From a virus (Duplodnaviria > Heunggongvirae > Uroviricota > Caudoviricetes), in the IMG/VR virus record IMGVR_UViG_3300032007_000013: DNA of 59,697 bases; one strand, 5' to 3'. Shown piece by piece: positions 33,815 through 59,697 of this stretch. The notes under the pieces are model-generated. The model did no database searches, had not been told where the DNA came from, and saw only the letters and a program-made list of their open reading frames with translations. The position numbers and the translations under genes were made by a program. The stretch's first letter is position 1. The number at the start of each line of letters is the position of its first letter.

Positions 33815-33850
33815 ACTATCAACCTCCACTTAACGATTTCTCTAACACAA

Positions 33851-35450: not shown

Positions 35451-35612
35451 TTGACAAACCACACAACCTGTGGTATAATAGAAGTGGTGCCTTGCAATAA
35501 GGTAAGCGACGACCTTTGTTAAAAAAATAACAATCTTTTTTATAAAATAACTCTTGACATTTGCCCGGGCATGTGGTATTATAATACCAGAAAGAGAAAA
35601 GGAGATACAACA

Positions 35613-35813
35613 ATGAACCACATCATCTACATCGACAGAACATTCGACAGCAACATGAACACTATCGAGACTCAGTGCAAGAGCAAAGTGTATGGGACTT
35701 TCTCCGCACGTTATCCCAGCGGCGTCAAGAAGATGGCTCGCGTGTGGAATAAAAGACTTAATAAGATGATTGCTATTCGGTTAGACCACGATCTGGTCAG
35801 CATCATTGACTAA
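35613..35813 (+). CDS. Small early protein
   Basis: Own promoter, AAGGAG SD and downstream hairpin. Confidence 0.7.
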   Translation: MNHIIYIDRTFDSNMNTIETQCKSKVYGTFSARYPSGVKKMARVWNKRLNKMIAIRLDHDLVSIID

Positions 35814-35888
35814 TAAGAAAGACTTAAAAGTCTTTCTTTTTTTTATAAAAAACTCTTGACAGATTGGCACATCCATGCTATAATACAA

Positions 35889-35940
35889 TCACAGGTTGAG
35901 GGAAACCACACTCGGGTAGCAGAGGGGAAAGACTAACTAA
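35889..35940 (+). ncRNA. Repeated small RNA candidate, copy 1
   Basis: Promoter at 35856 followed by CACAGGTTGAGGGAAACCACACTCGGGTAGCAGAGGGG with no ORF. Confidence 0.55.
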
Positions 35941-36040
35941 ATAGTAACAAAAGAAAGACAAAAAGTTTCTAAAAATAGTTGTTGACAAATAACATCCTTT
36001 ATGTTATACTACAATCAGAAAGAGACAGGAGGACACAGAG

Positions 36041-36241
36041 ATGCTCGAAACTATCACGATCAGAAGAACAAAGAAGTCAGAAGCAATCATTAATGCTTGC
36101 GTCATGGCTTATGGTTGCTTGATGGTGGAAAAGAAAACGCGTGTTTATCTACACGCCTTTAATGGTGACGGTGTTATCATCGAAGAGATTCTACGTGATG
36201 AACAAGTGAATGTGCTGTCTCGCAAGCCGTTCAGTCTTTAA
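36041..36241 (+). CDS. Small early protein
   Basis: Promoter, AGGAGG SD, terminator. Confidence 0.7.
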   Translation: MLETITIRRTKKSEAIINACVMAYGCLMVEKKTRVYLHAFNGDGVIIEEILRDEQVNVLSRKPFSL

Positions 36242-36366
36242 GAGATAACAGATACAAGAACTTAATTAAAAAAGTTCTTGTATTTTTTTTTGAAAAGGGT
36301 ATTGACAAATCATTTTTCTTGTGCTATACTATAATCACAAAGGGAAGAGAAAAGGAGATAACAAAG

Positions 36367-36675
36367 ATGATTAACATTAGAACGATTAACAAACTCACTG
36401 AGAATGATGGACTTACTCTTAAAAATGGCAAGCCAATCACTTATAAAAGTGGTTGGCAGGTTGCCACCGAGGGCGTGGAGTGCCACACCGCACGGGAAGC
36501 CATCAACGCGGTTAAGGCTTACGCTGGTAACTGCGGGGTGTGGTTCGCTGGTGGTATCTACTACATCGACAAAAGCCACCGCGTAAACACAAAGCGGGAA
36601 GCACTGGAAGTCGGCAGGGCTTGCAATCAGATTTCCGTACTCGGTTGGCGTAAAATGGCTTTAGCGTACTGCTAA
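36367..36675 (+). CDS. Hypothetical early protein
   Basis: SD-corrected start MINIRTINK. Own promoter. Confidence 0.75.
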   Translation: MINIRTINKLTENDGLTLKNGKPITYKSGWQVATEGVECHTAREAINAVKAYAGNCGVWFAGGIYYIDKSHRVNTKREALEVGRACNQISVLGWRKMALAYC

Positions 36676-36890
36676 AGCCATTTTGTTTTATTGGAAACTC
36701 ACAAAGCGGATTTTGCCCGGGCAAAATCGTCAATCCCGAAAGGCCCCGGACTTCACCACGCTAAAGTGGCAAAGTAAAAAACGCGAATGATTGTTAAACA
36801 AATAACAATAAAAAATGTCCCGAAACTACTTGACAACAGGCACAATGTGTGTTATAATACAGTTACCAAAAGGAAAAGAGGCAAATAATC

Positions 36891-37295
36891 ATGATAGTTA
36901 GATTTGCAACACCAGCCGACACTATCCGCATTATTCGGGCTATACAGAATAAACGCATGGACTACAACACGCCGCAAGATGTACGGGAAGATGTGAATGT
37001 GGGGCGGTTGATTGTAGCAGAGGAAAACGGCAAGCTTTTGGGGTCTGTGGCTGTCGTGTATAAAGCCCATCGTGGTTATTATGCTATCATGAGAATGTGC
37101 GTGTATTCCAAAGCCAGCAAGGGAAAAGGTGTAGCAAGTGCGTTAATTGACTACGTGTTAGCTCTTGGCCTTGGCACTTATGGGGCAACGCCTTGGAATG
37201 ACAATCCGGCCATGATTCACATTTTTGTCAAAAGAGGCTTTAAGTATCAATACACATTCAAAAATAAATACGATTTTTATAAAAAAGGGGCTTGA
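36891..37295 (+). CDS. GNAT-family acetyltransferase
   Basis: VRFAT..D, VAEENGKLLG, motif A (KGKGVASALI) and N...F.K.GF. Confidence 0.8.
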   Translation: MIVRFATPADTIRIIRAIQNKRMDYNTPQDVREDVNVGRLIVAEENGKLLGSVAVVYKAHRGYYAIMRMCVYSKASKGKGVASALIDYVLALGLGTYGATPWNDNPAMIHIFVKRGFKYQYTFKNKYDFYKKGA

Positions 37296-37350
37296 CAAAT
37301 TCAAGCCCTTATGTTATAATACAATCACAAAAGGAAAGGAGATCAAAAAA

Positions 37351-38254
37351 ATGTTTAATGTTTATTACATCCGCAATGAGTATGAACTCAACGCTAAATT
37401 TGAGAAAAGAGGAAGTGCTCTTTTATTTGCTCATAATTTTGTATCTATGTTAGGCGGAGATTATGCCGCTGTTACTGATACAGAAACAAATAAAACTATA
37501 CAAATTTATAGCAGATACTAAAAAAGGCTGATACAGCCTTTTTTATTTACATTAAAAAAATTGAAAAAAAGTGCTTGACAAATCGCCCGGGCAGTGCTAT
37601 ACTATAATCACAAAGAGGGAAGGGAAACCCAAACAAACCGGAAAGGAAGAAAAAAATGGAGTTTTACAGCATGGAGCAGTTCGAGATCATGGGCGACCTG
37701 ATGGAAGATTATCAAGAGTGGCTGGACTTTGAAGAGGACATGAAGTCCAATCCTTGGGGCTGAAAAAGCCCCAAGGAAATTAAAAAAAGTGCTTGACAAA
37801 GCAAAAGGCTTATGGTATAATACAATCAGAAAGAAAGAAAAGGAGATAAAAAAAATGTACATCGTAACTGCTTATAAGATTTGGGAAGAGTTTGAAGACT
37901 ACGACAAAGCCGAACTGTACTTCGCCGCTTTGAGACATGGCGGGTATAAGTACGTGGAACTGAAAAAGAAAACCACGACCGATAAATACGAATACTTTGA
38001 AAGTATCAAAATCTTTGTGAAATAATTAAAAAAGGGGCTTGACAAATCAAGCCCTTTATGTTATAATGTAATCACAAAAGAGAAAAGGAGATAAAAAAAT
38101 GAAAGTAATTCAGAACATCGAATGCGGCAACATCTTTCCCTACACCCTTGAGGGATTGATTGAAATGAGAGAAGAAGCCCGCGAACTTTACGATATTGAA
38201 GATCCCACCAATACGGTGAGCATTTCCGAATACTATCAGATAATTACGCTGTAA
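37351..38254 (+). CDS. Four small early ORFs (37351-37521, 37656-37763, 37855-38025, 38099-38254)
   Basis: Each has its own promoter and SD. 37656-37763 is highly acidic. Confidence 0.65.
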
Positions 38255-38315
38255 AAAGCGTAATTTTTTTTTGAAAAAGGGCTTGACAAATCGCCCGGGC
38301 AATGCTATAATACAA

Positions 38316-38368: not shown

Positions 38369-38468
38369 TAGTTACAAAAGAATGACAAAAAATTTCTAAA
38401 AAAAACTCTTGACATTTGCCCGGGCTTATGCTACAATACAATCAGAAAGAACAAAGGAGGACAAAAAA

Positions 38469-40955
38469 ATGTTCGACATCAATGTTATCAATGACTGGTA
38501 CGCAGAGCAGGAGTTAAACTGGGAAGAAAACCCGGTTGAGGATTGGCCGGACGATCTGTGGGACGATTAAAAAAGTCCCACAGAAAAATAAAAAAAAAGA
38601 CTTGACAAGCCCGGGCATGTATGCTATAATGTAATCACAAAAGGAAAAGGAGATAAAAAAAATGAACGCTAACGAAATCAAAGAAAGAATTGAAAAGCTG
38701 GAACGCTGGTGCTGGTTTGAGCAGATGGCAGATTTTATGAACTGGACAGCCTACGACAAAGCACAGGCCGAAATCAAAGAACTTAAAAAAAAGTTAGAAG
38801 AAATTGAAAAAAAGGCTTGACAAGCAAAAGCCAATAGTGTATAATGAAATCACAAAAGGAAAGAAAAGGAGAATAAAAAAATGAGTTATTTTATGGGAAA
38901 TGGTCGTGCTGATACCTGCCGCAATGGTGAAGCCTACAAGGGCAAGGCGGTTGAAATGGTGATTGATGTGCTGGAAATCCGCGACGGCTTTGAACTTCGC
39001 AAGGCGAGCGATAGCACCGGAACAGCGGCAAAGTTCCGCATCTTCTGGGATGGTGAGTGCATCAGCACCGTCTACAATGAAAAGGAAGCACGGGCACTGT
39101 TTAACGACTTCGCCCCAGCACCCCAGCGGAAGGCGGGACGCCCTAAGAAGAACGCGGCTTAAAAAGCCGCTTCTTTATCGCCCGGGCAAAAGTTACAAAA
39201 GAAAGACATTGACAAATAGCTAAAAGCATGTTATAATGTAATCACAAAAGAGAAAAGGAGATAAAAAAAATGACTATTTACAAGGTTGCTGCGTACAACA
39301 AATTTGAAGATGAATGGTATTTGGATGGGTACTATGTCCATTATAAAAACGCTAATGCAAGAATGGATGAACTTGATAAACCTTGGACAAATGCCAACGG
39401 CATTGAATTTCATACTGCCACGCTCGAAATAATTGAAACTAAGGATTAAAAATCCTTAGTTTTTTTATTAAAAAATGCTTGACAAAACAAGTCACTTGTG
39501 CTATACTATAATCACAAAAGAGAAAAGGAGATAAAAAAAATGACTTACGAAGAAATGTATGACCTGCTGGCCGATACTCTCGGAATTGATGAAGACGCTC
39601 TCGATCTGGCATTTGCCATTGGCGGATGCAACGAAGAAACCGCCGAAAGAATTTTGTTCTACTACACTGGCTGGCATTCTTTTGAGGGCTGGCTTGGTGA
39701 ACAGGAAGAGGACTGAAAAAGTCCTCTTCCGCCCGGGCGGAAAAGTTACAAAAGAAAAACATTGACAAGTCCAACAGAGTATGCTATAATAAAGGCACAA
39801 AGAAAGAAAAGGAGAATAAAAAATGAAGGTCAAGGAGTTAATCAATGTTCTTAATAACTATAACCCTGATGATGATGTCGAGGTCGTAGGTAATAGTGAT
39901 GGAGCAGTAATCCAGATCGGCAATTATAGGCCCTGCGTTGGCCTTTATGGCAAGAAGTATTTTATCTTTGTTTCAAAGGATGAAATCACCACTTAAAAAA
40001 ATAAAAAAGGGGCTTGACAAAACAAGCCCCGCATGATATAATACAATCACAAAGAAAGAAAAGGAGAAATAAAAATGACTACCTGTGCTGAGTGTCTGTG
40101 CCATGATGAGTGCCCGCTGTATCGCGGTGAAGATACCGACCAATGCTGGTATGAAAAAATCAGAAAAGAAAAGGAGAACAAAGAAAATGAAAAAGTTTGA
40201 AACCAAGATTACCCGCGACAATGCAGAAGTCAAGTGCATTGTGGAAGCTATCGACAAAGACCACGCCGCCCGCCGCTTCTTTGAGATTCTGGGAGAGCAC
40301 GGCCTGAAAATCAAGGAACTGTAAAAAGTTCCTTGACTTTTGCCCGGGCGATTTACCTCAAAAATTTTAAGTAAAAAAATTAAAAAAGGGGCTTGACAAA
40401 TGCCCGAGCTTGTGCTATTATAATACCAGAAAGAGCAAAGGAGATAAAAAAAATGAACATGAATGAGAAAATTAAGGAACTGGAAGCCAAAGGATATAGC
40501 AAGCATGACTATGAAGTAAATGAAGCTGCTGACAGTGGATGGATTATCACAGTTTATACCAGTCTGTGGAGTTTTGAAGAATATCTGTATGATACAGATG
40601 GAAATCCCATTGAAGCAACAGAAATCAATCTGTATGGCAAGCCCCAAAAAATTTATTAAATTGGGGCTTGACAAATAAAACAAAGCATGTTATAATAAAT
40701 ACAGAAAGAAAGAAAAGGAGAAATAAAAAAATGATTATTGAAAAAATTGAGATCGGCAAAATCTGGGAAGGTGGATTTAACGATTATCATTTCCAATGCC
40801 GCCCTGCTGGAAGCACAGAACCTTTTGATGTTGGGACAATGTACTTTGAAGACTTTGAAGCGTGGAGAGAAGGCGTAACCACCATTGAAAAAATGAAAGA
40901 TGTCCTTTTCCCCGAGGTCTATAAAATGTTAAAAGAAATGAAAAAAAGGGCTTGA
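38469..40955 (+). CDS. Ten small early ORFs (38469-38570, 38662-38820, 38881-39162, 39270-39449, 39540-39716, 39823-39996, 40075-40200, 40187-40324, 40453-40659, 40731-40955)
   Basis: SD-led ORFs, nearly all behind individual promoters. Several are strongly acidic or Cys-rich. Confidence 0.65.
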
Positions 40956-40984
40956 CAAGTTCAAGCCCTTATGTTATAATGTAA

Positions 40985-41613: not shown

Positions 41614-42769
41614 ATGAAAGTTAAAATGAATCAACTAACCTACCACGCAAAAGAAGAGAGACGCGACAGACGCGAAATCGTCAAACAAGTAGGAATTGGC
41701 AGACCTATCGCACAGGTTAAGAAATTCAGTGATAACGACAGAGAAAAAACTGAAATGCTCACTGATACAGGCTTGATTGTGGTGATGGGTGATGATAACA
41801 AGATTATTACTTTGTATCTCGCAAGCACCGCAAAAGCGGCGGCAGTTTATAAGTCAGCCCATGGGGCAAATGCAATGATGCCTGTACAAATCTTTGAACA
41901 AATCAAAATCAATCGTATCATGTTCCCCGCTGATTAAAGCGGGGAATTGATTTTTATAAAAAAAAATGATATAATAAATTATAAAATAAAATAAAGGAGG
42001 CCGAAAAAGTTATGGATTTAATGCTTGCCCGGGCACTTTTAGCAATCGCAAAATATTGTGCTTCTTGTGATGATTGTGATAAATGTGTTTTACGCGATTT
42101 CTGCGGGAAAATGCCATTAGAGTGGTAATTAACGCGGCGACCGTACCCAATCGGGGCGGTTCGAACTTTCGCACGGTAAAGCGTTGAAGAATTTTTCGGC
42201 CATTGAGTCGGGCAAAACTTTTAATACTTTTTGCCCGAAACCTATTGACAAATAAATACATTTGTGTTATATTATAATTGTTCCAAGAGAGAACAACAAA
42301 AATAAAAAAGGAGAATACAACAATGTATAATGTGCGATTTGTTGACACTGTCCATGGCGAAATCGAGGAAAATTTCGAGACCTATGACGAAGCGATGGAA
42401 TACTGGAATGACTATGCGGATACCGAGTCTTGCGTGGCTGGTGTTCTGATGGATTTGGATAACTGCGAAATTCTTTGGAATTTTGACGATAGGGAGGCAG
42501 AATAAATGAAAAAGATTCTTGCTTTTATCCTTGTCTTTGTTCTTGTTCTGTCTCTTGCTGGATCAGCATGGGCTGATTTTAACATGAGCCTATTTGACAC
42601 AAAGTATAGTTTTAATTATGCTTATGTGGGTTTGCCTAATGGTAAAACGATCGAGGGCGAAGTCAAGAACTGGAAAGACTGGGATGATTCGGACATGTTG
42701 CAGGTAACTTTTGTAGACGGCTCAACCTATTATACCCATTCGTCTAACATTGTACTGATTTCAAAATAA
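41614..42769 (+). CDS. Four early ORFs (41614-41937, Cys-rich 42012-42128, acidic 42323-42505, signal-peptide-bearing 42506-42769)
   Basis: SD-led ORFs. The last begins MKKILAFILVFVLVLSLAGSAWA. Confidence 0.65.
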
Positions 42770-43307: not shown

Positions 43308-43411
43308 GTATCTTTCTTAATCGCCCGGGCGGAAAAGTTACAAAAGAAAGACATTGACAAATAAATCATGATGTGCTATAATAAAGGCACAAAAAGAAAA
43401 GGAGAAAAACA

Positions 43412-44411: not shown

Positions 44412-44473
44412 AAAAATCCTCTGTTTTTTTAAAAAAGGGCTTGACAAATCGCCCGGGCTATGTTATATTATAG

Positions 44474-44523: not shown

Positions 44524-44657
44524 ATTTGGAGGATGAGGGGGAGGTCGCCCGGGCGGCAACAAAAGAAAAACAAAAAGTTACAAAAGAAAGTCATTGACAA
44601 ATGCCCGGGCCTGTGGTATTATAATACCAGAAAGAGAGATAAAGGAGGATAAAAAAA

Positions 44658-46196
44658 ATGTACTTCGTTCTTGACATTGTCAGTAATAAAACCGTAGCAA
44701 TGACCGCTTTTAAGGATGCCGCTGAAATTATCGCCGCAAACTTCCCCGCAAAGTGCGTTGTTCGCTACGCCGCTGAAATAGTTAGCGGATACTCTAAGGA
44801 CAGCATGTTCTTTGAGAATGAGCAGGAAATGGAAAAAGGGGCTTGACAAAATAGCCCCTTTGTGATAGAATACCAATAGAAACAGAAAAGGAGAAATAAA
44901 AATGATGTATGACATTTATCCCTGCGATCTCGACCCCTTCGGTGAATGCCCGAAGCATTGTCAGGATTGTGCCCATTGCGTGGGCTGGTTCATGAATGAA
45001 CCAGAGGACGACGAAGAAAATTAAAAAAGGGGCTTGACAAATACAGCCCCCTGTGCTATAATAAAAACACAATGAAGGAGATGAAAACAATGAAAGCACG
45101 ACCGCCGCCCGCAAGGGTATGTGATTGGATTACTAATAAATTAGATAGTAATGTATAGGAGAATAAACTAATGAATAGAATTAGAGATGAGACGAAAACC
45201 TTTTAAGGTTTTCTAATAGATAGTATAGAATGATAGTAAAAAAATGAGGAAAAACTAATGAATAGAATTAGAGATGAGACCAAAACCATTTAAGGTTTTC
45301 GATGAATAGATTAGAATGATAGTAATAAAATAGAATAGAAGTAAGTGCCAAGGGGCGGCTCGGTTGGAGGATGGAAGTAGCCGAAAAAATTTTTCAATAA
45401 ATTTTGAAAAACCCCTTGACAAATGCCCGGGCATTTGCTATAATACAATCACAAAGAGAAAACAAGGAGGAAAAGAAAATGATGAATAGTGATTACTGGG
45501 AAGTCCACGAGGCCGAATGGCTCGCCGCGCAGGAGTGCATGGAATGGCTCCTGTTTGAGGCCGACATGGCCACTGACCCCTACCGGGATTAAAACCCGGT
45601 AGGGAGAAAATACTTGACAAGTCCAAAAGTGTATGATATAATTAAGGCACGAAAACAAAGGAGATAAAAAAATGAGAACTTGTAAAAATTGCGGTTGCTA
45701 TCTTCCCGATAATTGGACTACCTGCCCCGCATGCTTTACAAATGAAAATGAACAGCAAGAAATAAAAAAGGTTGTTTATAAAGAAACTAAACCACGTGAA
45801 TCTCTTTCTTTTAATGTTTGCCGTGTGGATATTCTTCATAAAAACAACACTAAATCTTCTAATATTTTTGCTTCTTATGAAAATGCTGTCAAGTTTGCTC
45901 ACCACATGACTTGTCGTGCTGATGTTGCTATTGTTCTTGTCGTTGATAGCCGTAGCGGAAAAATAATTGAAAAATTTTCTCGCAAAGGGTATTGACAAAT
46001 CCAAAAACGTATGGTATAATTAAGGCACAAAAGGAAAAGAAAAGGAGATAAAAAAATGTACGAATACACAATCCGTTATCTTGAAAATGGCGAAGAGGAT
46101 TTCCTTTATGGCTATTCTCGTCAGGATTTAGCAAGACGCTATCCCGAAATCCCGACTGACAGTTATGTCATTGTTTGCCGCGAGTACATCGACTGA
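44658..46196 (+). CDS. Small early ORFs (44658-44846, 44902-45024, 45479-45592, Zn-ribbon 45672-45995, 46056-46196)
   Basis: SD-led and promoter-linked. 45672 has CKNC...CPAC. Confidence 0.65.
45165..45335 (+). repeat. ~87-bp tandem duplication in a non-coding purine-rich tract
   Basis: AAACTAATGAATAGAATTAGAGATGAGAC-AAAACC-TTTAAGGTTTT...TAGAATGATAGTAA occurs twice. Confidence 0.85.
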
Positions 46197-46518
46197 TTAC
46201 TCGCGGTTTTCTATTCATTTTTTTAGAATGGTTATGCATTGTATAAGCATACATTATAAATGAATTTTATACGGGCCATTTTTGGCGCGCCGCCCCTGGT
46301 CGATGCGGCGCGTTTTTCGCTGTAATAATTCTGCCACAATTTTGTCATCAATTTGTAACACATTCGTATGAACAAGTAAAGTCCCGAAATGAATAATTAT
46401 ACAATAAATAATGAATAAAAATTCAGAAAATTTTTTTGAAAAAATTAAAAAAAAGTGTTGACAAACGCCCGGGCATCTGCTATAATCATAGACAGAAAGG
46501 GACAAGGAGGACGAAAAA

Positions 46519-46926
46519 ATGACTAACTACTACTTCGACATGGACGGCGTTCTGGCTGACTTCCATGGTGCTTATACTGATAGGGCACAGGCTTTTCAGT
46601 ATGATTTTATCGCTAACCTTGCCCCGTTTACCGCAAATGTTGAGCTGGCAAAGTCCCTCATGGCACAGGGCAATCGGGTTTACATTTCCACCATTGCCGC
46701 AAGTGAAGAAGCAAAGCAGGCGAAAATTGATTGGCTTGCAAAGTATCTCCCGGAGATCCCCCGTTATCGCATCATCATCATCGTGGGGCATGGCAACAAG
46801 GCCGAACACATGAAAACGAAGACCGGAATCCTCATTGATGACAAGCGTGCCAATTGCCGCCAGTGGGAAAAGGCTGGACAGCATGCGGTTTGGCTGGAAA
46901 TCAAGGGGGGAGCAATCTCCCTTTGA
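46519..46926 (+). CDS. HAD-superfamily 5'(3')-nucleotidase-like protein
   Basis: YFDMDGVLAD, K..WL..YLP, K, ILIDD...N...W. Confidence 0.8.
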   Translation: MTNYYFDMDGVLADFHGAYTDRAQAFQYDFIANLAPFTANVELAKSLMAQGNRVYISTIAASEEAKQAKIDWLAKYLPEIPRYRIIIIVGHGNKAEHMKTKTGILIDDKRANCRQWEKAGQHAVWLEIKGGAISL

Positions 46927-47021
46927 TTCTAAAAAAAAATTATTTTGTAATCATTTTGTAGTTGATTTTGCCCGGGCTATTTGCTATAATTAAGCCAGAA
47001 AGAAACAAGGGGGACAAAAAA

Positions 47022-48030: not shown

Positions 48031-48297
48031 GGGACTTGAATAAAGTCCCATTTTTTTTGGCTATTTATGCATTGTATACTCATTCATTTTCAATGAAACT
48101 TTATTCATTTCGGCGTGCCGCTCCTGGTCGACGCGGCACGTTTCCAGTATAACATACGCTGGGCAAAAAATCAATAGGCAAAATGCACAAAATTTTAACC
48201 TCGGCGGTTTCCCGAAAATTCCTTTGTGCAAAATGACGAATCGCTCAAAAATTGAAAAAAACTCTTGCAATCTGTGTTATAGTATGGTATTATAACA

Positions 48298-48792
48298 GTG
48301 TCAGGAGGGGTTGAGAGAATCCCCCACCCGACCCGGCGGTTCTTAAGGGTTCATCCTTAAAGCCCTTCCCCAATGGCGGTTCCCGTGAGTAGCCCCGCCC
48401 TCGGCCTTCGGGCAAACAAAAGCTAACACCCCACGCAGGCGGTGGAGTTAAAAAACAGCCGCTGGTTATGGTTCCAGAGTCAACAAAACAACCAACCGCG
48501 TACACGCGAAAGGCTTCCCACCATCGAAGCCGAGTAGGACAGGCCGCCACCTGACACCGCGGGATAGAAATAGAGGCCAACGGCTTCCCCAAGTGGCAGG
48601 GAAGCCAAGCCCAACGGAGCCAGCAGTAAATCGCCTGTGAGCGTCGTAAGACTGGCAAGAGCCGAGGAGCCGCACGCCGAAGTCCTACTGTGCGGGATAT
48701 AAATGTGGAGGCAACATGCGGGGAGCTTCTGGAACCCCCAGGCTGGTAGGATGGAAGCAACGGGACGGGAACAAAAAGCCCGCCCCATTTTT
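48298..48792 (+). ncRNA. Large structured ncRNA candidate (~490 nt)
   Basis: Promoter TTGCAA-17-TATTAT at 48265-48293. GC-rich, no SD-led ORF, nested long-range helices and multiple hairpins. Confidence 0.6.
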
Positions 48793-49204
48793 ATTACTCT
48801 CTGTATAATGCATTTTATACATTAAAACCTGTATAAAGATTCATTTTCGGCGGCCCGCTTCCAGACGCTGCGGGCCGTTTTTCGCTTTAACACGCTAAAG
48901 CGATAAATTGTTAGCGATTTAGCACGCTAAAGTGCTACCACGGTAAATCCCTAAACCTACTGGGTTAGTATACTTTAGTACGCTAAATCGTTAAACCTAT
49001 ATGCCCAATAGGTATATATACTTTAACACATTAAATCGCTAATATACTAAAACCTATATAGCCAGTAGGAGATTACAAAATAGTAACAATATAAAACAAT
49101 ATGGATAATTAGTATTGACATGTGCGGGATATGGTGTTATACTAATACTGTAAGTAAGAGAAAGAGAACAAGAAACAAAGAGATTACAAAGGAGTTACAG
49201 AATT

Positions 49205-49660
49205 ATGACAACCATGTGCGTTCCTGACGTGTTCCCCACTATCAAGAATAAGGGTATCCGAGCACAGGCTAATATGACCGCCGCTTGCGGACAAAAGTAC
49301 CTTGCCCATGACGGCAAGGCATATGACCATGCTTCTGACATTGAGTATATGGGCTATCATATCAGCGTTAAGGCGTACCACTTCACCCTTATGAGCGGTA
49401 CGCTGTGCGAAGGTAAGGACACTATCAACGACATATGGGATGTATATGCTCGCTCCACTCACAGCGACCGCTTCGCATATGTCCTCGGTGAGACAGCATA
49501 TATTATGAATATCGTTGAATTTGAGAAGTTTGTCAAGCTGTTCTGTGAGATTGAGCGTGAAAGCAATCACAGCGACAGACAGCATACTGGTAGCGTCAAA
49601 GTTCGTGCCAAGCGTTGCGAAGGCAATATGGCGAAGTGGTTCGCCCATATGATGGCCTAA
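49205..49660 (+). CDS. Hypothetical protein, paralog of 47022-47456
   Basis: AAGGAG SD and sequence similarity as described for 47022-47456. Confidence 0.7.
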   Translation: MTTMCVPDVFPTIKNKGIRAQANMTAACGQKYLAHDGKAYDHASDIEYMGYHISVKAYHFTLMSGTLCEGKDTINDIWDVYARSTHSDRFAYVLGETAYIMNIVEFEKFVKLFCEIERESNHSDRQHTGSVKVRAKRCEGNMAKWFAHMMA

Positions 49661-49786
49661 TCCATATGCCCGGGCGGCAACATATACAAAGCCGCCCGCT
49701 CCAATTTGTGCAATATGCTGACTTGACAAATATAAAAAAATTTGGTAAAATATATATACAAAAGATAAAGAAAGGAATTGATAAAA

Positions 49787-50221
49787 ATGACGATTTGGTT
49801 TGATATGGATGGAACGATTGCCGACCTGTATGGTGTGGAGAATTGGCTCCCGATGCTTCGGGCAAGCGATCCTACCCCCTATATGGTCGCCCGTCCGCTG
49901 GTAAATCTGTCTATTCTGGCAAGGATGCTGAATAAGCTCCAGAAACAGGGCTATGAAATCGGCGTGATTAGCTGGACTTCCAAGACTGGCACTCCTGACT
50001 ATAATGCCGCTGTGACTGCCGCCAAGTATGCGTGGCTGTCTAAGCACTTGCCGTCTGTGGATTTTGACGAAATCCATGTTGTTCCCTACGGCACTCCCAA
50101 GCAGGTCTTTGCCCATTCTGACGATGATATTTTGTTCGATGATGAAGCAAAAAACCGTGAAAACTGGACTGGATTGGCTCTGGATGTTACCGATATTATT
50201 GGTGCTTTGAAAGCCCTCTAA
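49787..50221 (+). CDS. HAD-superfamily nucleotidase-like protein
   Basis: WFDMDGTIADL, K..WL.KHLP, K, ILFDD...N...W. Confidence 0.8.
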   Translation: MTIWFDMDGTIADLYGVENWLPMLRASDPTPYMVARPLVNLSILARMLNKLQKQGYEIGVISWTSKTGTPDYNAAVTAAKYAWLSKHLPSVDFDEIHVVPYGTPKQVFAHSDDDILFDDEAKNRENWTGLALDVTDIIGALKAL

Positions 50222-50336
50222 GCCCCTTAAATGGGGCTTAAAAGCCCGGGCACTCTTCCCCATTTTTGTGCATTTTGCCTAATTGACAAATTCCAAAAGT
50301 AAGAGTATAATGAGGGTACAGAAAGGGGATAGAGCA

Positions 50337-51169: not shown

Positions 51170-51263
51170 GCCCAGCCTAACCGCCCGGGCAATTTGTTAA
51201 GAAATTATCAAATGATTTTTTGAAATACCCTCTTGACATTCTCTAAATCATTTGCTATAATAT

Positions 51264-51513: not shown

Positions 51514-51600
51514 GCGTGGGTGCTGGAACTGGTATACAGATTGGTCTTAAAAACCAATGCCCAAATGGGATTGGGGGTTCAAATCCCCTCCCACGCACCA
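51514..51600 (+). tRNA. tRNA-Leu (anticodon UAA)
   Basis: Acceptor stem GCGTGGG/CCCACGC plus ACCA. Anticodon arm TTGGT-CTTAAAA-ACCAA, long variable arm, GTTCAAATC T-loop. Own promoter at 51461. Confidence 0.95.
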
Positions 51601-51691
51601 ATTTAAAAAGGTAGACAAATTTTTTGGCAGACTAAATTAATAAATTAAAAATAATTTTCATAATAAAATAGAAAAGGATGTGATTTTTATT

Positions 51692-52189
51692 ATGAAAAAA
51701 TATACAAAAGAATGGTTAACTGAATTATGTCAATCAAGCTATTCGTATGCTGAAGTTTTAGCAAAAGCTGGTAGAAAACCAGGTGGTGGGAATCAACAAA
51801 CATTAAAGACAAAAATTCAAGAATTTGGCATTGATATTTCTCATTTCACTGGCCAACGATGGTATGATTCACCAAATCAAAATGCTGAAACATTACATAA
51901 AAGTCATGAAAAATATACTTTAAAAGAAGTATTTACAGAAAATAGCCCTGTAACACAAAAAATATTACGAGGCTATATTGAAAGACACAATTTATTAGAA
52001 TATAAATGTGAAAAATGTGGTTGTAATGGGGAATGGCAGGGTGGAATTATTTCATTAGAATTAGACCATGTAAATGGAAATAATACTGATAATAGATTAA
52101 GCAATTTACGATATTTATGTCCCAACTGCCACGCTTTAACTGATACCTATCGAGGGAAAAATAAAGCCCTCAAAAATCAAAATAGATAA
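51692..52189 (+). CDS. HNH endonuclease (putative homing)
   Basis: CEKCG...LELDHVNGNNTDNRLSNLRYLCPNCH. AT-rich, directly after the tRNA. Confidence 0.9.
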   Translation: MKKYTKEWLTELCQSSYSYAEVLAKAGRKPGGGNQQTLKTKIQEFGIDISHFTGQRWYDSPNQNAETLHKSHEKYTLKEVFTENSPVTQKILRGYIERHNLLEYKCEKCGCNGEWQGGIISLELDHVNGNNTDNRLSNLRYLCPNCHALTDTYRGKNKALKNQNR

Positions 52190-52439
52190 CCTCCTATCTC
52201 CTTTCTTTCTCTCCTTTCTCTTTTTGTACGGTTCCTACCCTATGGGTAGGAATTGTGCCCGGGCGAAAGATTGTGAAATAAATAACTTTTGAAAAAGGTA
52301 TTGACTTTTAGAGAAAAAAGAGTATAATAATAATTGTCAAGAGGAAGGATATAGCCCAAAAAAATAAATGACCGCGTGGGTGTTTCGTGCGGGATATAAA
52401 AACTCTTGATATAAAAATAATGTAAAAGGTGACAAAAAA

Positions 52440-53728
52440 ATGAACATTATTGGTGGAATCTGGCTTATGACGACAGTTTTGGTTTTCTCTTTATTTACTT
52501 CTGTATTTCTTACAGCCAAGGAGAAGTTCAAAACAAAGCATCCAACAGCAAAAATAGAAAAGAGTCTATTTGGAGAAAAAATCTACGGGTATGTAATGGT
52601 TTTTGTTATCATAACTGTACCGATTTTTCATCTTCTTGCTTTATTCATCTTAGCTACTCAGTATGATGATATCGTAGAAGGTACGATTTCTAAAATAGAA
52701 AATAAAATTATTTCAGAGGAATAAGGACTATTTTATTAGTCCTTATTCTTTTTTGGTTGAAAATTTTAAAAAAAAATTATATAATTATTATAGAAAATTA
52801 AAGAAAAGGAATTGGTAAAAAATGATTGTTACTATTAAAGACCAGAAGAAAGAATTTAACGCTCACATTGATAATCTTGTGGCAAAGTGCCCGGGCGATA
52901 AGACTAAGGCTGAACTTTTTCATGAGTTTATGGCTAATGAAATGTTTAATTGCTCTGTTGATGAGAACTATTTTTATGAATTTACTCTTGCTTTTGAAGA
53001 GTTTCTGTATTTTGCTTATCGAATGGATCCTACGAATTTTAAGTATTTTGATTTAGATAGATTTTATTTTTGATTTCCTATTGACAAATGTCTTTCAAGA
53101 TGTTATACTATGATTGTCAGGAGGGATATTGATGGAACTAAAAGAAATGATTCAAAAACTTGCCAATGCACTTGATAAAGAAAGTGATTATTGGTGTAAT
53201 TTTGCGGTAGCGAATACCACCAATCCGAATAAAATGATGTATGGTGCGGCGGTTGGCCGAGGAGCAACATACACTGAGGTTGTAATGCTGCTTAAGTTTA
53301 TCCTTAATAATGATACCGATAAATTTGAAGATTTTCTGGCTTCTTATAACGATATTAAAGAAAAAATATCAGGAATTAAATGAAAGGAGACAATAAAAAT
53401 GGATATTAGAAACATGCCTGCCAAAGCGGCTTATTATGAATTTGTCGTAGCGATTCCTAATGCTGACCATTATACTTTTCTCGGTATGTATGCCGATGGG
53501 CACCAGGCCGAAAGAACCGCTCTTGAATACGGTGGAATTGTGATCCACAATGTGCGGATTCACGGCTATCAGCCGCCTAAGCGTGAAAAAAAGTATTATA
53601 TTTTTAGTGGCTCTTGGTCTTGGGGATGCTGGGCTACTGACGTAGAAGATGCTGAAAGACAATTCTCTGAAGCCTATGATGAAGAGATAGATATTGACTA
53701 TAAGCATGAAATTGAGGTAGATGAATAA
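52440..53728 (+). CDS. Four ORFs (membrane 52440-52724, 52822-53073, 53132-53383, 53399-53728)
   Basis: SD-led ORFs from the supplied track, with starts adjusted. Confidence 0.65.
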
Positions 53729-53821
53729 TCTACCTCGATTGCCCGGGCGCGCGTTCACAAAAAGTTCATAATTTTTCGGCAAATACCTGTTGACATTCGC
53801 GCGCCTATCTGCTATACTATA

Positions 53822-54334: not shown

Positions 54335-54336
54335 AA

Positions 54337-54606
54337 ATGAAAACAACTGGAATTGTGCGGCGTGTGGATGACCTTGGGCGTATTGTTATCCCCAAAGAGA
54401 TTCGGCGGGCTCTCCACATTAAAGAGGGCGACCCCCTTGAAATCTATGTTGATGATAACATGGTGTGCTTTAAGAATTATAAGTATCAGGCCGTTGAAGA
54501 TGCTTTTCAGCAAGTCCTTAATGCTTCTGCTGATTTGATTAACACTGAACAGCGTGATGCTATTATGGCACACATTAACGCTATCCGTCAGTTGGTATTT
54601 GAATAA
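54337..54606 (+). CDS. AbrB/SpoVT-family transcription regulator
   Basis: MKTTGIVRRVDDLGRIVIPKEIRR.L.I.EGDPLEIYV is the canonical AbrB/SpoVT N-domain. Confidence 0.9.
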   Translation: MKTTGIVRRVDDLGRIVIPKEIRRALHIKEGDPLEIYVDDNMVCFKNYKYQAVEDAFQQVLNASADLINTEQRDAIMAHINAIRQLVFE

Positions 54607-54711
54607 GCCGAGAGTTAATCTCGGCTAACCGCCCGGGCGGATTGTTAACAACTTAACAATCTTTTTTTGAAATAGTTATTGACAAATGCTATCTGCTATG
54701 CTATACTATAA

Positions 54712-55068
54712 TTGTTCCAAGGGAAAGGGAAGTGGTACCCCCTGAGTAACGGAAGAACTGGACAGCAAGCTTTCAGTGGTTAGGACTGTCAAGTACAAAA
54801 AAATTTCGGACTGATGACTTTTGAAGTATCGTTTTACCAAGTGACGAGAGATAGTTTCAAAGAAAACTGTCTACAAGTGAATTGGGTGACCTTTAGTTTT
54901 ATGGTTAAAGGTGGGTATTCCTTGGGGTGACAGGTTTTGGTTTCCAAAAAAGGAAAACGAAAATAGACAGGAACCCTAAAAAATCCAAAAAAGTTTTGTC
55001 AGAGGGAAGAATTATGAGGCATTAGTAGTAAGTCCTCCGAAAGGGTTTAACCGCCCTCTGACAAAATT
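54712..55068 (+). ncRNA. Structured ncRNA candidate (~350 nt)
   Basis: Promoter at 54679. Serial hairpins, ending in a 13-bp stem TTTTGTCAGAGGG/CCCTCTGACAAAA. No SD-led ORF. Confidence 0.5.
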
Positions 55069-55143
55069 TCAAAAAGCTCTTGACAAGCATTACATCATGT
55101 GTTATAATAAATCCAGAAGATGAAAAGAAAAGGAGATTTCAAA

Positions 55144-55452
55144 ATGAGAGTACACATTGAACACTTTGCCAGTTCTTACAGCATTACTTTCCACTCTGAT
55201 GAAAGTGAGTATGATGTTGAGAACTTCAGTTCTCTGGATGCGGCACTTGCCTATGCTGAGGAAGAGATTGACGTGCGGTGTCAGGCCACTTTCGCCACCA
55301 TCTGGGATAGCAACACCGGTGAAGTTTATGCTTCTTGCTCTTGGGATGATGAGTCCATCCCCGAAGAAGACTATGGAGCATGGGATGACTGGAACTATAA
55401 TGAGGATGAGGGCTTTGACCCCTACCTTGGCGAGTATACTTGGGACTGCTGA
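55144..55452 (+). CDS. Highly acidic small protein
   Basis: D/E-rich, ends GFDPYLGEYTWDC. Confidence 0.75.
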   Translation: MRVHIEHFASSYSITFHSDESEYDVENFSSLDAALAYAEEEIDVRCQATFATIWDSNTGEVYASCSWDDESIPEEDYGAWDDWNYNEDEGFDPYLGEYTWDC

Positions 55453-55643
55453 AAAACAGCCCCAGATTTTTTTATAGTTCCAAAGAATTCCAGTGAGCCC
55501 GGGCAAAAAGATTGTTAAAGAAATAACTTTCTCATCGTGAGAAAAAAATCTTGACAAATTTAATCAGATGTGTTATTATAATAATGCCAAGAGGAAAGGA
55601 CCTCTTGATAGAAAATAAAAAAATATAAAGGAGTAAAAAAATT

Positions 55644-56539
55644 ATGATGATGGTGTTTGGTGTGTGCGATAATGCTATTGATGCTTACCGTATGATGGAG
55701 TATGCGATGGAACTGATTGCTGCGTATAGCGGCGGCATTGACATCTATGATGATGATGACGACGATTGGAGATGCGGCACCTGAGTTCGATGTGGGGCAA
55801 TTACTTCAAAAACTTGAGGTAATTTGCCCGGGCGGATTGTTAAAGAAATAACTTTCAAAAAAAGTATTGACTAATGCTATATAATGTGGTATTATAATAA
55901 TGCCAAGAGGGAAGGAGATAAAAAGATGGATTATGTGTATTTAATCTGGGAAGATGTTGATAATTGGGCCGAGGATGGTGGCGGCACTTATCTTGTTAGC
56001 ATTTATGCTAATAAAGAAGATGCTGATAAAGAATGCAGAAAACTCAACGAAAATCGTCCTGCGAAAAATGTTGAGTATTTTGTAGATAAAGGAGCTGTAA
56101 AATAATGGAACTTATTTGCCCCTATTGTATTAAGCCCCTTGAATGGGATGATACGATAGATTATGATATTGGCATTGACTATGCTGATACTAAGGATACA
56201 GGCCATTGCCCTCAGTGTAATAGACACTTTCACTGGTATACACATTTTGTATTTTCTCGTTATGAAGACTTGACAGAAGACTAAACCTGTGCTATAATAA
56301 ATACAGAAAATAAGAAAGGAAGTAAAAAAATGGCGATTGTAATTGGACTTTTGATTGGGTACGCTATCAGTTTTCTTGCTAATGCTGGCCTTGTGTGGCT
56401 GCTGTGCTGGGGTCTGAAAGCAGTTGGTATCACCACTATCGGTGGTTGGACTGTGGCTTTTAGCTGGCCGCTGGTGTTGATTTTCACCGTTGCCTACATA
56501 ATTCTTCATGGCATCTTCGGTGGACACAATAAGAAGTAA
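55644..56539 (+). CDS. Small ORFs (55644-55784, 55926-56105, membrane 56330-56539)
   Basis: SD-led and promoter-linked. Confidence 0.6.
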
Positions 56540-56551
56540 GGAGGAACAATT

Positions 56552-56770
56552 ATGAAAGATAAGATTACTTATAGTATTGTTGAGGAAATCGCTGTTCTCT
56601 CTGTCCGTGGTAATTGGGCCCTTGAACTTAACCGCGTGGCATGGAATGGCGGCCCACCCAAGTATGATATCCGCTCATGGGATGTAGACCACACCAGAAT
56701 GGGCAAGGGCGTTACCCTCAATGATGATGAGATGGAGGCCCTGCTCGATGCAATGGCGGCAAGGAACTAA
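56552..56770 (+). CDS. YdbC/PC4-like ssDNA-binding protein
   Basis: W.LELN.V.WNG.PPKYDIR.W..DH..MGKGVTL..EE-like signature. Confidence 0.85.
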   Translation: MKDKITYSIVEEIAVLSVRGNWALELNRVAWNGGPPKYDIRSWDVDHTRMGKGVTLNDDEMEALLDAMAARN

Positions 56771-56885
56771 CCTTGCCCAATCGCCCGGGCAGCTTGTTAA
56801 ATAAATAACTATTAAAAAAGATATTGACAAATTTAATTAAGTATAGTATTATAATAATACCAAAAGAAAAGGAGAATAAAAAAAA

Positions 56886-57607
56886 ATGGATTGGAAAGAA
56901 AAAATTGCGGCAGGAATGAAAATGATTATAAAAGGGTGCGACCAGGAAGGTCTTCATTATGGCTGTAAAGGGTGCCCTTTTGACTCTATCTGTGATACCA
57001 TTTTAAAAGATGAGGAAAGCAAGTATTCTACTCCCGATTGTTGGGAAGAAGAAGGAATTTTCAAAACCCCTCTTGACACATTGTAAATCTTGTATTATAC
57101 TAATACCAGAAAAGAAAAGGAGATAAAACAATGAATCTCAAAAATATGACTATGGAAGAGCTTTGCCAGATGAAAACCGAACTCTATGATGAAATAGAAC
57201 GTCGTGTTAAAGCAGAGGAGCAAGCGGCCATCAAAGAATTTATAGAGGCTTTCACTAAATTGGCTGAAATGGCAGTAACTGTCACTTATGAAGATTATGA
57301 TGATACCTATACCTTAATAAACCCTGACAGATTCCATTTCACATCTCTTTAACCCTTTTAGGGTTAAAGCCCGGGCACCGAAAAGGGGCTTGACAAGATG
57401 TAAAAGATGTGCTATAATTAAATCACAAAAAAGAAAGGGAGAATAAAAATGATTACTTATACTGAGACTGAACTTAAAACTTGGTTCTTGAAAGAGGTAC
57501 AAAAGTATCCTCATTCTAACACTGAACAGCATTTGAAAGCGGTGTTTCATTTGATGTTTAATGAGGATGTAAAAGATAATTTGAAAAAAGTGCTTGACAA
57601 GGAATAA
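56886..57607 (+). CDS. Three small ORFs (56886-57086, 57131-57352, 57449-57607)
   Basis: SD-led and promoter-linked. Confidence 0.6.
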
Positions 57608-57654
57608 AAAGTGTGCTATAATAAAAGCACAAAGAACGAAAGGGGAACTTAAAA

Positions 57655-57804
57655 ATGGAAAACTTCGATAAAAGAATGTTGAAGAAATCTCCTGAAGAGC
57701 TTCAACAATATCTCGCTTTCCGCCGCAAGGCTGGTCGCGTGCCCGCTAAAAAGGGCAAGGGCGCGAAATATAATCGTAATGATTTCAAGAAAGAGGTGGC
57801 GTAG
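57655..57804 (+). CDS. Basic 49-aa peptide with ArfA-like KKGKG..YNR motif (ends at TAG; readthrough extends it to 57831)
   Basis: MENFDKRMLKKSPEELQQYLAFRRKAGRVPAKKGKGAKYNRNDFKKEVA. Own promoter at 57594. Confidence 0.55.
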   Translation: MENFDKRMLKKSPEELQQYLAFRRKAGRVPAKKGKGAKYNRNDFKKEVA

Positions 57805-57805
57805 G

Positions 57806-58826
57806 ATGAAGAGTCCAAGATGGCAGATTGAATACCACTGGATAAACGATGAGGGCATTTGTGAGACTTATCGTTATAGCCATGTCTTTACTAATCTTGA
57901 TGCCGCTGTCAAGGCTTATGAGGATTATGTAAGACTTGAAGGCGGTGGATGGTATGACCTGATTGAGATTACTGAAAAAGTAATTTCTCTTTAAGAAAGG
58001 AAATAAAAATGTATAATGAATTACCTTTTTATATCCTATGGGGGAAATATTATAATCCTGTTTTAGATGCCTATACTGAAAAAATGTTAGGCTGTTATAG
58101 GGAAGAGAGTAATGCCAACAGAATGGCTAATACTCTGCGAAAAATGAAACCTGTATGTGAATACTTTGTTTCTACTGAATTTTTCTGTGATTAAGAGGGC
58201 GCAAAGCCCTCTTTTTTGCCCGGGCGCATGTTCACAAAAAATTCATAAATTGTCTATTGACATTCTCTTAATCCAGTAGTATAATACAATTACCAAAAGG
58301 AAAGGAAATAAAGAAAATGGATGAACAGCTTATAAGAGATTGCCTGCGGATGTTACGAGATCGCAAAAATTATTACCAAAATACTATTAAAAATGGCAAA
58401 AGTCTTAATCTTGATGCTGACTATGCCGCGGCTGGGGCTTATAGTTCTGCCGCAACTATGTTAGAATATGCTATTAAGAAAGATAAAGAAATTCTTGCTC
58501 AATTTGATTACTACAAAGAAAATTAAGGAAAGGAAGTAAAAAAAATGAATGAAATGTCTAAATTGATTGCCCTACTTGAAAACGCGCATGTCCCTTATGA
58601 AACTCGTCCGCATTGGAGTGGTAGTATTCAGGTTGGTTATCCCAATTTTGAAAATACTATTTGTGATGTTATCTATTTTCCTGGCAGTTATGGCTATGGA
58701 CAGGGACTGCTGGAAATTATGGGCCTTGTTGATGAGGAAGAAGTTGGAGAAGGCGTTGAAGGTTATCTGACCGCAGTTGAAGTTTTTCAGCGCATCTTCA
58801 AACATTATAGATACGGCACGATTTAA
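57806..58826 (+). CDS. Four small ORFs (57806-57994, 58009-58194, 58317-58526, 58545-58826)
   Basis: SD-led ORFs. Confidence 0.65.
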
Positions 58827-59222
58827 GCCTTACGGGGCTTAATCGCCCGGGCGGATTGTTAAATAAATAATTATTAAAAAACCTATTGACTTTTTAGAAA
58901 AAGAGAGTATAATAATAATTGTCAAGGGGAGAAAGAAAACAACCTCTCTCAGGCACATAACCTGATGTAAGTAAAATCAAATCTCTTCAAAAAAATAAAA
59001 AAACCCCTTGACAAATTGCCCTCTCTATGATATGATGTAAGTACAGTAAAGGAAGAGGACAGAGGCATCAAGAACGGTTCAAAAAAAAGATAAAAACCCT
59101 CTTGACAATTCGCTCAACCTATGCTATAATAAGTATGTAAGGTAAAGGAAAAGAAACGGAGCCTTGTCCTACTAAAAGGCTTTAGAATCTGGTAGGTAAA
59201 TCTTTTGAAAGAGGTAGATACT

Positions 59223-59627
59223 ATGTCCCGTAAGCTGTCCTATGTTTCTGCGATTGATTTCGCTCTGTCCGTCCTGTCCCAGATTGATGCCGCTCAGGTG
59301 GCTATCCCCGCAGCCAAGGAAGAGGACGCTCCTGTGTCTGTCGGTGAGGTCGTGGAGAAGCTGACCGCTCTCCGTGAGAAGCAGGCCGCTCGTTCGGCTA
59401 CTAAGGCCGAGGGGCCGACCAAGGCCCAGCTTGAGCGTGCCGCCCTTGCCTCCCGCATCGGTGATGCTATGGAGCCGGGTGTGACCTACGGCAACGCTGA
59501 GATTGCCGCCCTCCTGCCGGAGCTGGCTGGTGCTACTCCCCAGCGTCTGTCCCCCCTCATGGCTCTGCTCGGTGAGCGGATTGTGACCTCTAAGGTCAAG
59601 GGCAAGAACTACTACACTCTTGCCTGA
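59223..59627 (+). CDS. Putative winged-helix DNA-binding protein
   Basis: GAGGT SD. C-terminal helix-turn-helix plus beta-wing (T.QRLSPLM..L...IVTSKVKGKNYYTL). GC-rich biased codons, three tandem promoters upstream, terminator at 59633-59663. Confidence 0.6.
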   Translation: MSRKLSYVSAIDFALSVLSQIDAAQVAIPAAKEEDAPVSVGEVVEKLTALREKQAARSATKAEGPTKAQLERAALASRIGDAMEPGVTYGNAEIAALLPELAGATPQRLSPLMALLGERIVTSKVKGKNYYTLA

Positions 59628-59697
59628 TTCCAAATAACCTACCCAATCGGGTAGGTTATTTTTTACCTCTCGGTTAGCAAAGGCTAACCGCCCGGGC

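Follow-up and report, generated by a model that had tools for sequence, protein, structure and literature searches.

The 8-base palindrome GCCCGGGC is found in 33 exact copies in a 59,697-nucleotide stretch of viral DNA (Caudoviricetes; IMG/VR record IMGVR_UViG_3300032007_000013), referred to below as the window, and all of them lie between positions 35563 and 59697. The copies are placed mostly in or just upstream of the strong promoters of an early gene region, and the same word is kept in related phages amid variable flanks. On the best reading, GCCCGGGC would be bound by a DNA-binding protein of two-fold symmetry, through which the boundaries of early gene cassettes are marked and regulated; the probability of this reading is estimated at about 0.45.

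The window is a portion of the genome of a large TAG-recoded, siphovirus-like phage, uncultured, from gut or rumen. Two features define its early region:

32771-33829, - strand: TAG-recoded gene for a phage sigma factor, at the head of the divergent late arm; the anchor for finding relatives
33873-59697, + strand: early arm; small standard-code genes, GC content about 39-43%, about 67 consensus sigma-A promoters

The early arm holds about 60 genes on the + strand from about 33.9 kb, all in one orientation, and its GC content compares with about 30% in the late arm. The promoters (35451-59130, + strand) are near-perfect TTGACA-17-TATAAT sequences, about one per 350 bp, most of them with an extended -10 TG.

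Number and exactness of the copies

An earlier reading made from the letters alone (the sequence-only reading) had counted 33 exact copies, with none noticed in the first 34 kb and far fewer than one expected by chance. The recount agrees, with no copy before 35563 and an expectation of 0.14 copies (the mean of dinucleotide-preserving shuffles; maximum 2). The motif-free first 34 kb is itself uninformative, because far fewer than one copy would be expected there by chance. The inner hexamer CCCGGG occurs 34 times in the window, 33 of them within GCCCGGGC, and only two one-mismatch variants of the 8-mer are present in the entire window (at 39088 and 40402). An independent Logan assembly (SRR9008756, L272) matches 54793-58928 at 100% identity, six copies included, and the sequence is therefore no assembly artefact.

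The flanks of the 33 copies show at least 20 unrelated contexts on each side, with only the 8-mer in common, in line with the variable flanks that the sequence-only reading had described; the copies are therefore not duplicates of a few modules. A weak mirror bias is seen around the word (pyrimidine at -1 and purine at +1, A at -4 and T at +4), part of which may come from the promoter context. The complementarity of the flanks is merely 32-47% per position, and GCCCGGGC alone folds to at most a 2-bp stem with a CCGG loop. Complementary flanks that permit a hairpin with this loop are found at few copies (36715 and 45425). The 20-bp perfect palindrome reported at 36709-36728 is real, with one copy at its centre. 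Palindromes of the type GTTAG-N-CTAAC are no feature of this window.

The window ends on a copy, as had been pointed out, but this end is not a genome terminus, because the same phage continues in a 241-kb ENA contig (ERZ27256887), which encodes the same proteins and has more + strand genes beyond the window end. The terminal copy is an assembly or windowing effect. The Logan contig is also broken inside repeated promoter modules near motif copies, which suggests that assembly breaks tend to fall at such modules. Exact window-end probes found no match in viral or metagenome contigs, and no near-identical phages were found in the INPHARED collection.

Placement relative to promoters, hairpins and reading frames

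Eleven copies are located within the spacer that separates the -35 box from the -10 box, ten in promoters of the TTGACA-17-TATAAT type and one in the weaker promoter at 46962, which bears out the earlier count of about 11; these copies begin 1-5 nucleotides (nt) from the -35 box. Another 18 copies are found 13-47 nt 5' of a -35 box, and 16 copies start 0-6 nt past a strong hairpin. The description of the intergenic copies as lying after a terminator and before a promoter holds for these positions but not for the word terminator, which is not established because most of the adjoining hairpins have no U-run; canonical + strand terminators are few. "After a hairpin" is the better wording. The motif as a stand-in for the U-run of a terminator is unsupported, and many hairpins carry neither. 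Being placed in spacers or just upstream of promoters, the copies therefore lie 3' of the preceding hairpin and 5' of the next transcription start. As the sequence-only reading had stated, only two copies are inside open reading frames (ORFs), at 42027 and 52889; the other 31 of 33 are outside (binomial P = 2e-9, against a coding fraction of 0.55).

The copies and one decayed copy are given below; the strand is indicated for the two copies in ORFs.

35563-35570: spacer of promoter 35554
36715-36722: intergenic; centre of the 20-bp palindrome 36709-36728
37585-37592: spacer of promoter 37575
38293-38300: spacer of promoter 38283; the GCCC half pairs with GGGC just 5' of the -35
38418-38425: spacer of promoter 38409
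38609-38616: spacer of promoter 38602
39180-39187: past hairpin; 21 nt 5' of the -35 at 39209
39731-39738: directly past hairpin; 23 nt 5' of the -35 at 39762
40342-40349: past hairpin; 43 nt 5' of the -35 at 40393
40402-40409: decayed copy GCCCGAGC; spacer of promoter 40393; intact in the matching promoters of L118 and L121
41236-41243: spacer of promoter 41229
42027-42034, + strand: in ORF 42012-42128 (Ala-Arg-Ala); also present in L118 and L121
43038-43045: past hairpin; 23 nt 5' of the -35 at 43069
43323-43330: past hairpin; 23 nt 5' of the -35 at 43354
44451-44458: spacer of promoter 44441
44547-44554: 39 nt 5' of the -35 at 44594
44603-44610: spacer of promoter 44594
45425-45432: spacer of promoter 45416
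46467-46474: spacer of promoter 46458
46970-46977: spacer of the weaker promoter 46962 (TTGATT-17-TATAAT)
49668-49675: 8 nt past the end of ORF 49205-49660; 47 nt 5' of the -35 at 49723
50244-50251: past hairpin; 31 nt 5' of the -35 at 50283
51183-51190: past hairpin; Rex-type box at 51194; 42 nt 5' of the -35
52257-52264: past hairpin; Rex-type box at 52271; 36 nt 5' of the -35
52889-52896, + strand: in ORF 52822-53073
53741-53748: past hairpin; 41 nt 5' of the -35 at 53790
54631-54638: past hairpin; near-perfect Rex-type box TTGTTAACAACTTAACAA at 54642
55497-55504: intergenic; Rex-type box at 55512; 46 nt 5' of the -35
55826-55833: past hairpin; Rex-type box at 55837; 33 nt 5' of the -35
56783-56790: past hairpin; Rex-type box at 56794; 33 nt 5' of the -35
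57369-57376: past hairpin; 13 nt 5' of the -35 at 57390
58218-58225: past hairpin with T-run; 31 nt 5' of the -35 at 58257
58845-58852: past hairpin; Rex-type box at 58856; 33 nt 5' of the -35
59690-59697: directly past hairpin 59671-59689; last bases of the window

Conservation in related phages

With the sigma protein as query, 80 related loci were retrieved from IMG/VR, many of them on contigs of 140-190 kb. In a subset of these loci the early arm, which lies upstream of the sigma gene, is enriched in GCCCGGGC, with 13 copies in 10 kb in locus L121, nine in L118, seven in L123, and six each in L154 and L168. The complete genomes G001, G002, G003, G004 and G010 have 10, 9, 6, 4 and 12 copies, respectively, all within the 11-18 kb early arm beside the sigma gene; in G003, where this arm has a GC content of 47-51%, some of the six may be chance occurrences. 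Three other complete relatives (G005, G007 and G009) have no copy anywhere in the genome. On the sigma tree the motif is found mostly in the clade of the window and also in two other clades, with sigma identity as low as about 59%. The search of relatives that had been proposed as a check of the motif is answered by these 4-12 copies in the same arm and the same contexts, and, as far as the related genomes can tell, the extension of the observation to the phage clade is confirmed.

Both the spacer and the upstream contexts recur in relatives whose sigma proteins are about 60-98% identical; pooled over the window and 10 relatives there are 106 distinct sites, of which 36 lie in spacers. Among 45 homologous site pairs, identity is 96-100% at the eight motif positions, against 44-78% in the flanks (44% at +1 and 73-76% at -1 to -3). 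Each site was picked in one genome of its pair (pairs below 97% identity) and its partner was located by BLAST, so that these values lean towards conservation, but the contrast with the immediate flanks is still clear. Between related promoters the motif shifts by 1-5 nt within the spacer and stays intact. Loss of a copy is also observed: the window has GCCCGAGC where L118 and L121 have the intact word, and four further losses are found in the site-pair comparison. Purifying selection on the exact palindrome is clear in these comparisons, and the exact word kept amid variable flanks points to sequence-specific recognition of duplex DNA. The earlier statement that the 8-bp core is the conserved unit agrees with the unrelated flanks, with the conservation peak in the site pairs and with the recurrence of the contexts. 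The gene content of the early arm is strongly variable between relatives, and the promoter modules recur.

Other GC-rich words were noticed in the same phages. In L158 (at 3669) and L161 (at 5288) the motif is directly followed by another 8-bp GC palindrome, GGCCGGCC in one and GGCGCGCC in the other, and the same 10-kb arm holds 11 copies of CTTTAAAG in L142 and seven of GAATATTC in L179. The hexamer GCGCCA/TGGCGC occurs about 345 times per genome in G001 and G002 (27-74 for controls of the same composition), and TGGCGCCA is found 26-30 times in these two. The GCGCCA-type copies are spread genome-wide, within genes too, with no strand bias, and G010 and G005 favour GCCGCA instead; codon usage or a modification motif is a possible source of the excess.

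Rex-type boxes and the host

The sequence TTGTTAA-N4-TTAACAA is the published consensus for Clostridial Rex (PMC9600882). Such a box stands directly downstream of seven copies in the window (boxes at 51194, 52271, 54642, 55512, 55837, 56794 and 58856), and it is found within 12 nt of 8 of 10 copies in G001 and 7 of 9 in G002, sometimes on both sides at 2-3 nt, with the downstream box centred near -63.5 (the G001 stretch with Rex-type boxes is 141.5-156.7 kb). There are 27-32 Rex-type boxes per early arm in the motif-positive G001, G002 and G010, and 6-7 in the motif-free G005 and G009.

The Rex-type boxes, together with the promoter and ribosome-binding-site types, point to a Clostridia-type Gram-positive host. 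A 1.9-kb fragment of a related phage was binned with a metagenome-assembled genome of the Acutalibacteraceae, which is a weak hint of the host.

A candidate site for a symmetric DNA-binding protein

The proposal of a regulatory site starts from the observations that the word is enriched, is placed non-randomly, is under purifying selection in its exact form and is conserved among relatives; the binding of a protein, and repression or insulation through this binding, are what we infer. GCCCGGGC would act in cis as a double-stranded DNA site for a symmetric, sequence-specific protein encoded by the phage or by the host, and would mark the untranscribed boundaries of early cassettes of one promoter and one gene. 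Bound in the -35/-10 spacer (11 promoters), the protein would exclude RNA polymerase and turn the promoter off. The roughly 18 copies that follow a hairpin and precede the next promoter, located near -50 to -90 and often beside a Clostridial Rex-type box, may be co-operators together with these boxes, or barriers between neighbouring transcription units. A global operator was among the options of the sequence-only reading, and it is the best fit to the anatomy, but no binder was found and the candidates named occur also in motif-free relatives.

Candidate binders in the early arm included the following:

33938-34201, + strand: AbrB/MazE-like early protein; homologues in a motif-free relative
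54337-54606, + strand: second AbrB/MazE-like early protein; homologues in motif-free relatives

None of the three binders proposed earlier, these two and the putative winged helix-turn-helix (wHTH) protein at 59223, tracks the motif among the relatives. A Pfam scan of 41 small early proteins gave no ribbon-helix-helix or helix-turn-helix family, and Atlas gave only weak wHTH leads for 59223. The early arm also contains an HNH endonuclease gene (51680-52189). A protein with a PC4-like domain was rejected as a binder, as it does not track the motif. The early protein at 36367-36675 was likewise set aside, its association with the motif being loose and its single-sequence fold unusable (pLDDT, predicted local distance difference test, of 40). 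This 102-residue protein, of unassigned function, is the product of the most conserved early gene (identity of 86% in G003, 76% in G004 and 73% in G001); it is better conserved than the sigma factor in the same genomes and is frequent, not universal, in motif-positive phages. A loose search of IMG/VR for a promoter-plus-motif pattern returned largely chance matches.

Several results weigh against a dedicated regulatory site. About half of the roughly 67 promoters are motif-free, and the distance of the upstream sites to the -35 box varies over 13-47 nt, so that no single geometry accounts for their action. The near-total lack of degenerate copies is odd for a transcription-factor operator. No DNA-binding gene was found to track the motif when the five motif-positive complete genomes were set against the three motif-negative ones (only a nucleoside deoxyribosyltransferase and a permease emerged, neither DNA-binding), and homologues of both AbrB-like proteins, the putative wHTH protein and the HNH protein are present in motif-free relatives. 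When bacterial genomes were scanned for promoters that carry the motif in the spacer, only scattered matches in GC-rich Clostridia came up, with no common downstream gene, which gives no indication of a host regulon. If a reader exists, it may be host-encoded or a conserved phage protein. In a proposed binder screen, the GCCCGGGC probe is set against the word GCCTAGGC.

Comparison with known systems

The promoter-early stem-loop (PeSL) cassettes of the T4-type phages RB49 and phi1 combine strong host-type promoters with a GC-rich (GGGG...CCCC) stem-loop, which is located in the spacer, around the -35 box or upstream; they occur in hyperplastic regions of orphan genes, where recombination between cassettes shuffles the genes (PMC2839356). 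Deletions in T4 often end at GGGC, sometimes paired with GCCC, and the authors speculate on a specific DNA-binding protein that reads the GC element (PMC2839356). These cassettes, together with the T4 GGGC/GCCC deletion endpoints, are the closest described system. The early arm shares with them the dense strong host-type promoters, AT-rich upstream regions, small orphan genes and a hyperplastic early region, as well as a short GC-rich element of a G-run and a C-run between -35 and -10, around -35 or upstream, and cassettes that differ between close relatives.

True PeSL-like stems are present in this phage family. A GGGC or GGGGC directly 5' of the -35 box pairs with GCCC or GCCCC in the spacer at 11 of the 67 window promoters and at 7 of 22 in the motif-free G005, and the paired GCCC is the first half of the motif in 3 cases. 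The -35 box then occupies the hairpin loop, and with an upstream A-run such stems score as minus-strand terminators.

37286, 38032, 40009, 40946, 42776, 44843, 45034 and others in the window: GGGC/GCCC stems around the -35

The motif itself, unlike the PeSL element, is an invariant loop-less 8-bp palindrome that forms no terminator stem-loop by itself. Separate hairpins abut 16 copies and stems bracket 11 of the -35 boxes, so that the array is PeSL-like and the motif is not the stem-loop. Further differences are that the exact word is kept across phages with sigma proteins only about 60% identical, that it is often fused to a separate hairpin or a Rex-type box, and that the phage is TAG-recoded, with a Clostridia-type Gram-positive host. 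The sequence-only reading had known no described phage system with this motif. For the exact word this stands, a literature search having found no phage paper with GCCCGGGC; the PeSL cassettes, with a GC-rich element in the same positions, had been overlooked.

In Cluster A mycobacteriophages, arrays of operators and stoperators of the L5 gp71 type silence initiation and block elongation across a genome region (PMC9283540, PMC6550527). As in these arrays, tens of copies of a short conserved site are found here at early promoters and in the gaps between genes. Stoperators are 13 bp long and asymmetric and follow the direction of transcription; they belong to temperate phages, whose monomeric immunity repressor binds them, and they co-vary with this repressor between sub-clusters. 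GCCCGGGC, by contrast, is a perfect palindrome with no orientation to favour, and in the relatives the word is identical or absent rather than varied, with no gene co-occurring with it. Among the five complete relatives searched, no match was found to a tyrosine recombinase (PF00589), a serine recombinase, a C5 (PF00145) or N4/N6 (PF01555) DNA methylase, or ParB_N (PF02195); the integrase of a temperate phage is lacking, and no cognate repressor gene was found.

The remaining systems share single traits with the array. The KorB and KorA global operators of plasmid RK2 and the ParB/Noc sites, of which the Noc site contains CCCGGG as its core, span 12-16 bp and depend on a ParB-family protein. 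The likeness is that palindromic sites, nearly identical and a dozen or more in number, stand at varied promoter positions, with global repression, whereas ParB_N is absent from the five complete relatives and the flanks here mismatch the Noc site. Integron attC arrays resemble the early arm in having one gene per cassette and a recurring palindromic-type boundary element. Integron cassettes, however, are usually promoterless and need the IntI tyrosine recombinase and a long structured attC, whereas every cassette here has its own promoter and PF00589 is absent from the relatives searched.

Alternative explanations

A role in recombination, the main rival reading, is unlikely, although it has a literature analogue in the PeSL cassettes and T4 (PMC2839356). 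The palindrome, alone or with promoter modules of about 80-100 bp, would then be the site of cassette exchange, deletion and duplication, through PeSL-like shuffling or at endpoints like the GGGC/GCCC of T4, with a nuclease or DNA-binding protein of defined sequence specificity as the possible trigger. The early gene content, variable between relatives while the promoter modules recur, would fit, as would the GC-rich elements in the spacer or upstream of -35 and the T4 deletions ending at GGGC (PMC2839356). The families of left flanks are joined to those of right flanks in different combinations, as at 44603 and 45425, so that chimeric promoters result. Homology breakpoints fall in or near promoter modules: some blocks shared by the window and L121 begin 2-4 nt from a copy (36711 vs 36715; 40340 vs 40342), while in G001/G002 the blocks end 35-114 nt from the nearest copy, within promoter modules and off the 8-mer. 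For the recombination core of the sequence-only reading, with breakpoints expected at the motif, this evidence is mixed. With offsets of 1-5 nt in 17-nt spacers, crossovers centred on the motif would often leave a spacer of a length that does not function, and the early genes keep a single orientation despite a palindromic core without polarity. The five complete relatives searched lack a tyrosine or serine recombinase, and homologous recombination in the long repeated modules would explain the shuffling without the 8-mer.

Somewhat less probable still is that no dedicated protein is involved and the word is built from the arms of GGGC/GCCC stem-loops, as a stem-arm remnant or as a GC clamp that limits DNA melting or the spread of supercoils between very AT-rich, very active promoters. 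The stems around -35 described above, the three that share a motif half, their scores as minus-strand terminators, and the copies at 36715 and 45425 that could fold with a CCGG loop are consistent with such an origin. A physical clamp, however, needs GC richness only, whereas the eight positions keep 96-100% identity beside variable flanks and hardly any one-mismatch variants occur. Given the low complementarity of their flanks, most copies cannot fold, and G001 and G002 have no copy after a perfect hairpin.

It is improbable that one factor reads GCCCGGGC both to insulate or repress early units and to target the gain and loss of cassettes, which would amount to integrase-free cassette exchange.

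It is quite improbable that the word is the target of a phage or host enzyme of the restriction-modification type, or of another nuclease or methylase, serving as an epigenetic mark, for programmed cleavage or as a decoy. GCCCGGGC is the SrfI recognition sequence and contains the SmaI/XmaI site, and type IIP sites are typically recognised by just these traits, an exact 8-bp palindrome, unconstrained flanks and a near lack of degenerate copies; the HNH gene in the early arm would be a candidate enzyme. Phages normally avoid restriction sites, however, and here the word is enriched more than 200-fold, its strict placement relative to promoters is left unexplained, the five complete relatives searched have no methylase of the C5 (PF00145) or N4/N6 (PF01555) families, and HNH homologues are present in motif-free genomes.

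A signal at the RNA level, in which the word would appear only in read-through transcripts and mark them for cleavage or for pairing with another copy, is very improbable: the positions do keep the motif out of correctly started and ended transcripts, and read-through is likely with few canonical + strand terminators, but a perfect palindrome with mirror-symmetric flank bias is not needed for it, the two copies in ORFs would be transcribed, and eight base pairs are probably too short for RNase III.

Other features of the window

The late arm (1-33829, the first 33.8 kb) is on the minus strand, and its ORFs stay open only if TAG encodes an amino acid. It encodes a 3763-residue tape-measure-like protein with 148 in-frame TAGs, a portal, a large terminase, a radical-SAM protein and the phage sigma factor. 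In the early arm a gene for tRNA-Leu (anticodon UAA) at 51514-51600 is the sole Rfam or ARAGORN match of the window. Family matches were obtained for early genes at 34252-34545, 36891-37295, 46519-46926, 49778-50221 and 56552-56770, comprising DUF488 (active N3 subclade), a GNAT acetyltransferase, two NT5C-like 5'-nucleotidases and the protein with the PC4-like single-strand-binding domain. The region 48000-50300 is GC-rich (46%) and of ambiguous coding, with minus-strand ORFs of 156 and 359 residues overlapping + strand ORFs; none of its ORFs has a Pfam match, except the NT5C-like ORF 49778-50221.

Significance

Large virulent phages subvert their hosts by means of arrays in which strong promoters precede tiny orphan genes, and it is there that the genome changes most rapidly. 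In the T4-type phages a GC-rich element travels with such promoters, and its reader, if any, was never found. Here, a TAG-recoded phage group of gut and rumen Clostridia, unrelated to the T4-type phages, has one exact palindrome in the same positions, under clear purifying selection. The coupling to Rex-type boxes suggests that early transcription of the phage is wired to the redox sensor of the host. If GCCCGGGC is merely a repressor operator, it would be a neat new instance of a familiar design, in a phage group about which little is known. A dual-role factor, if true, would supply the protein and the mechanism that are lacking for the GGGC/GCCC deletion hotspots of T4 and for the PeSL GC element, and the same device would have arisen in unrelated phage lineages. 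GCCCGGGC is a sharply defined probe for isolating the reader, and an unusually clean experimental handle.

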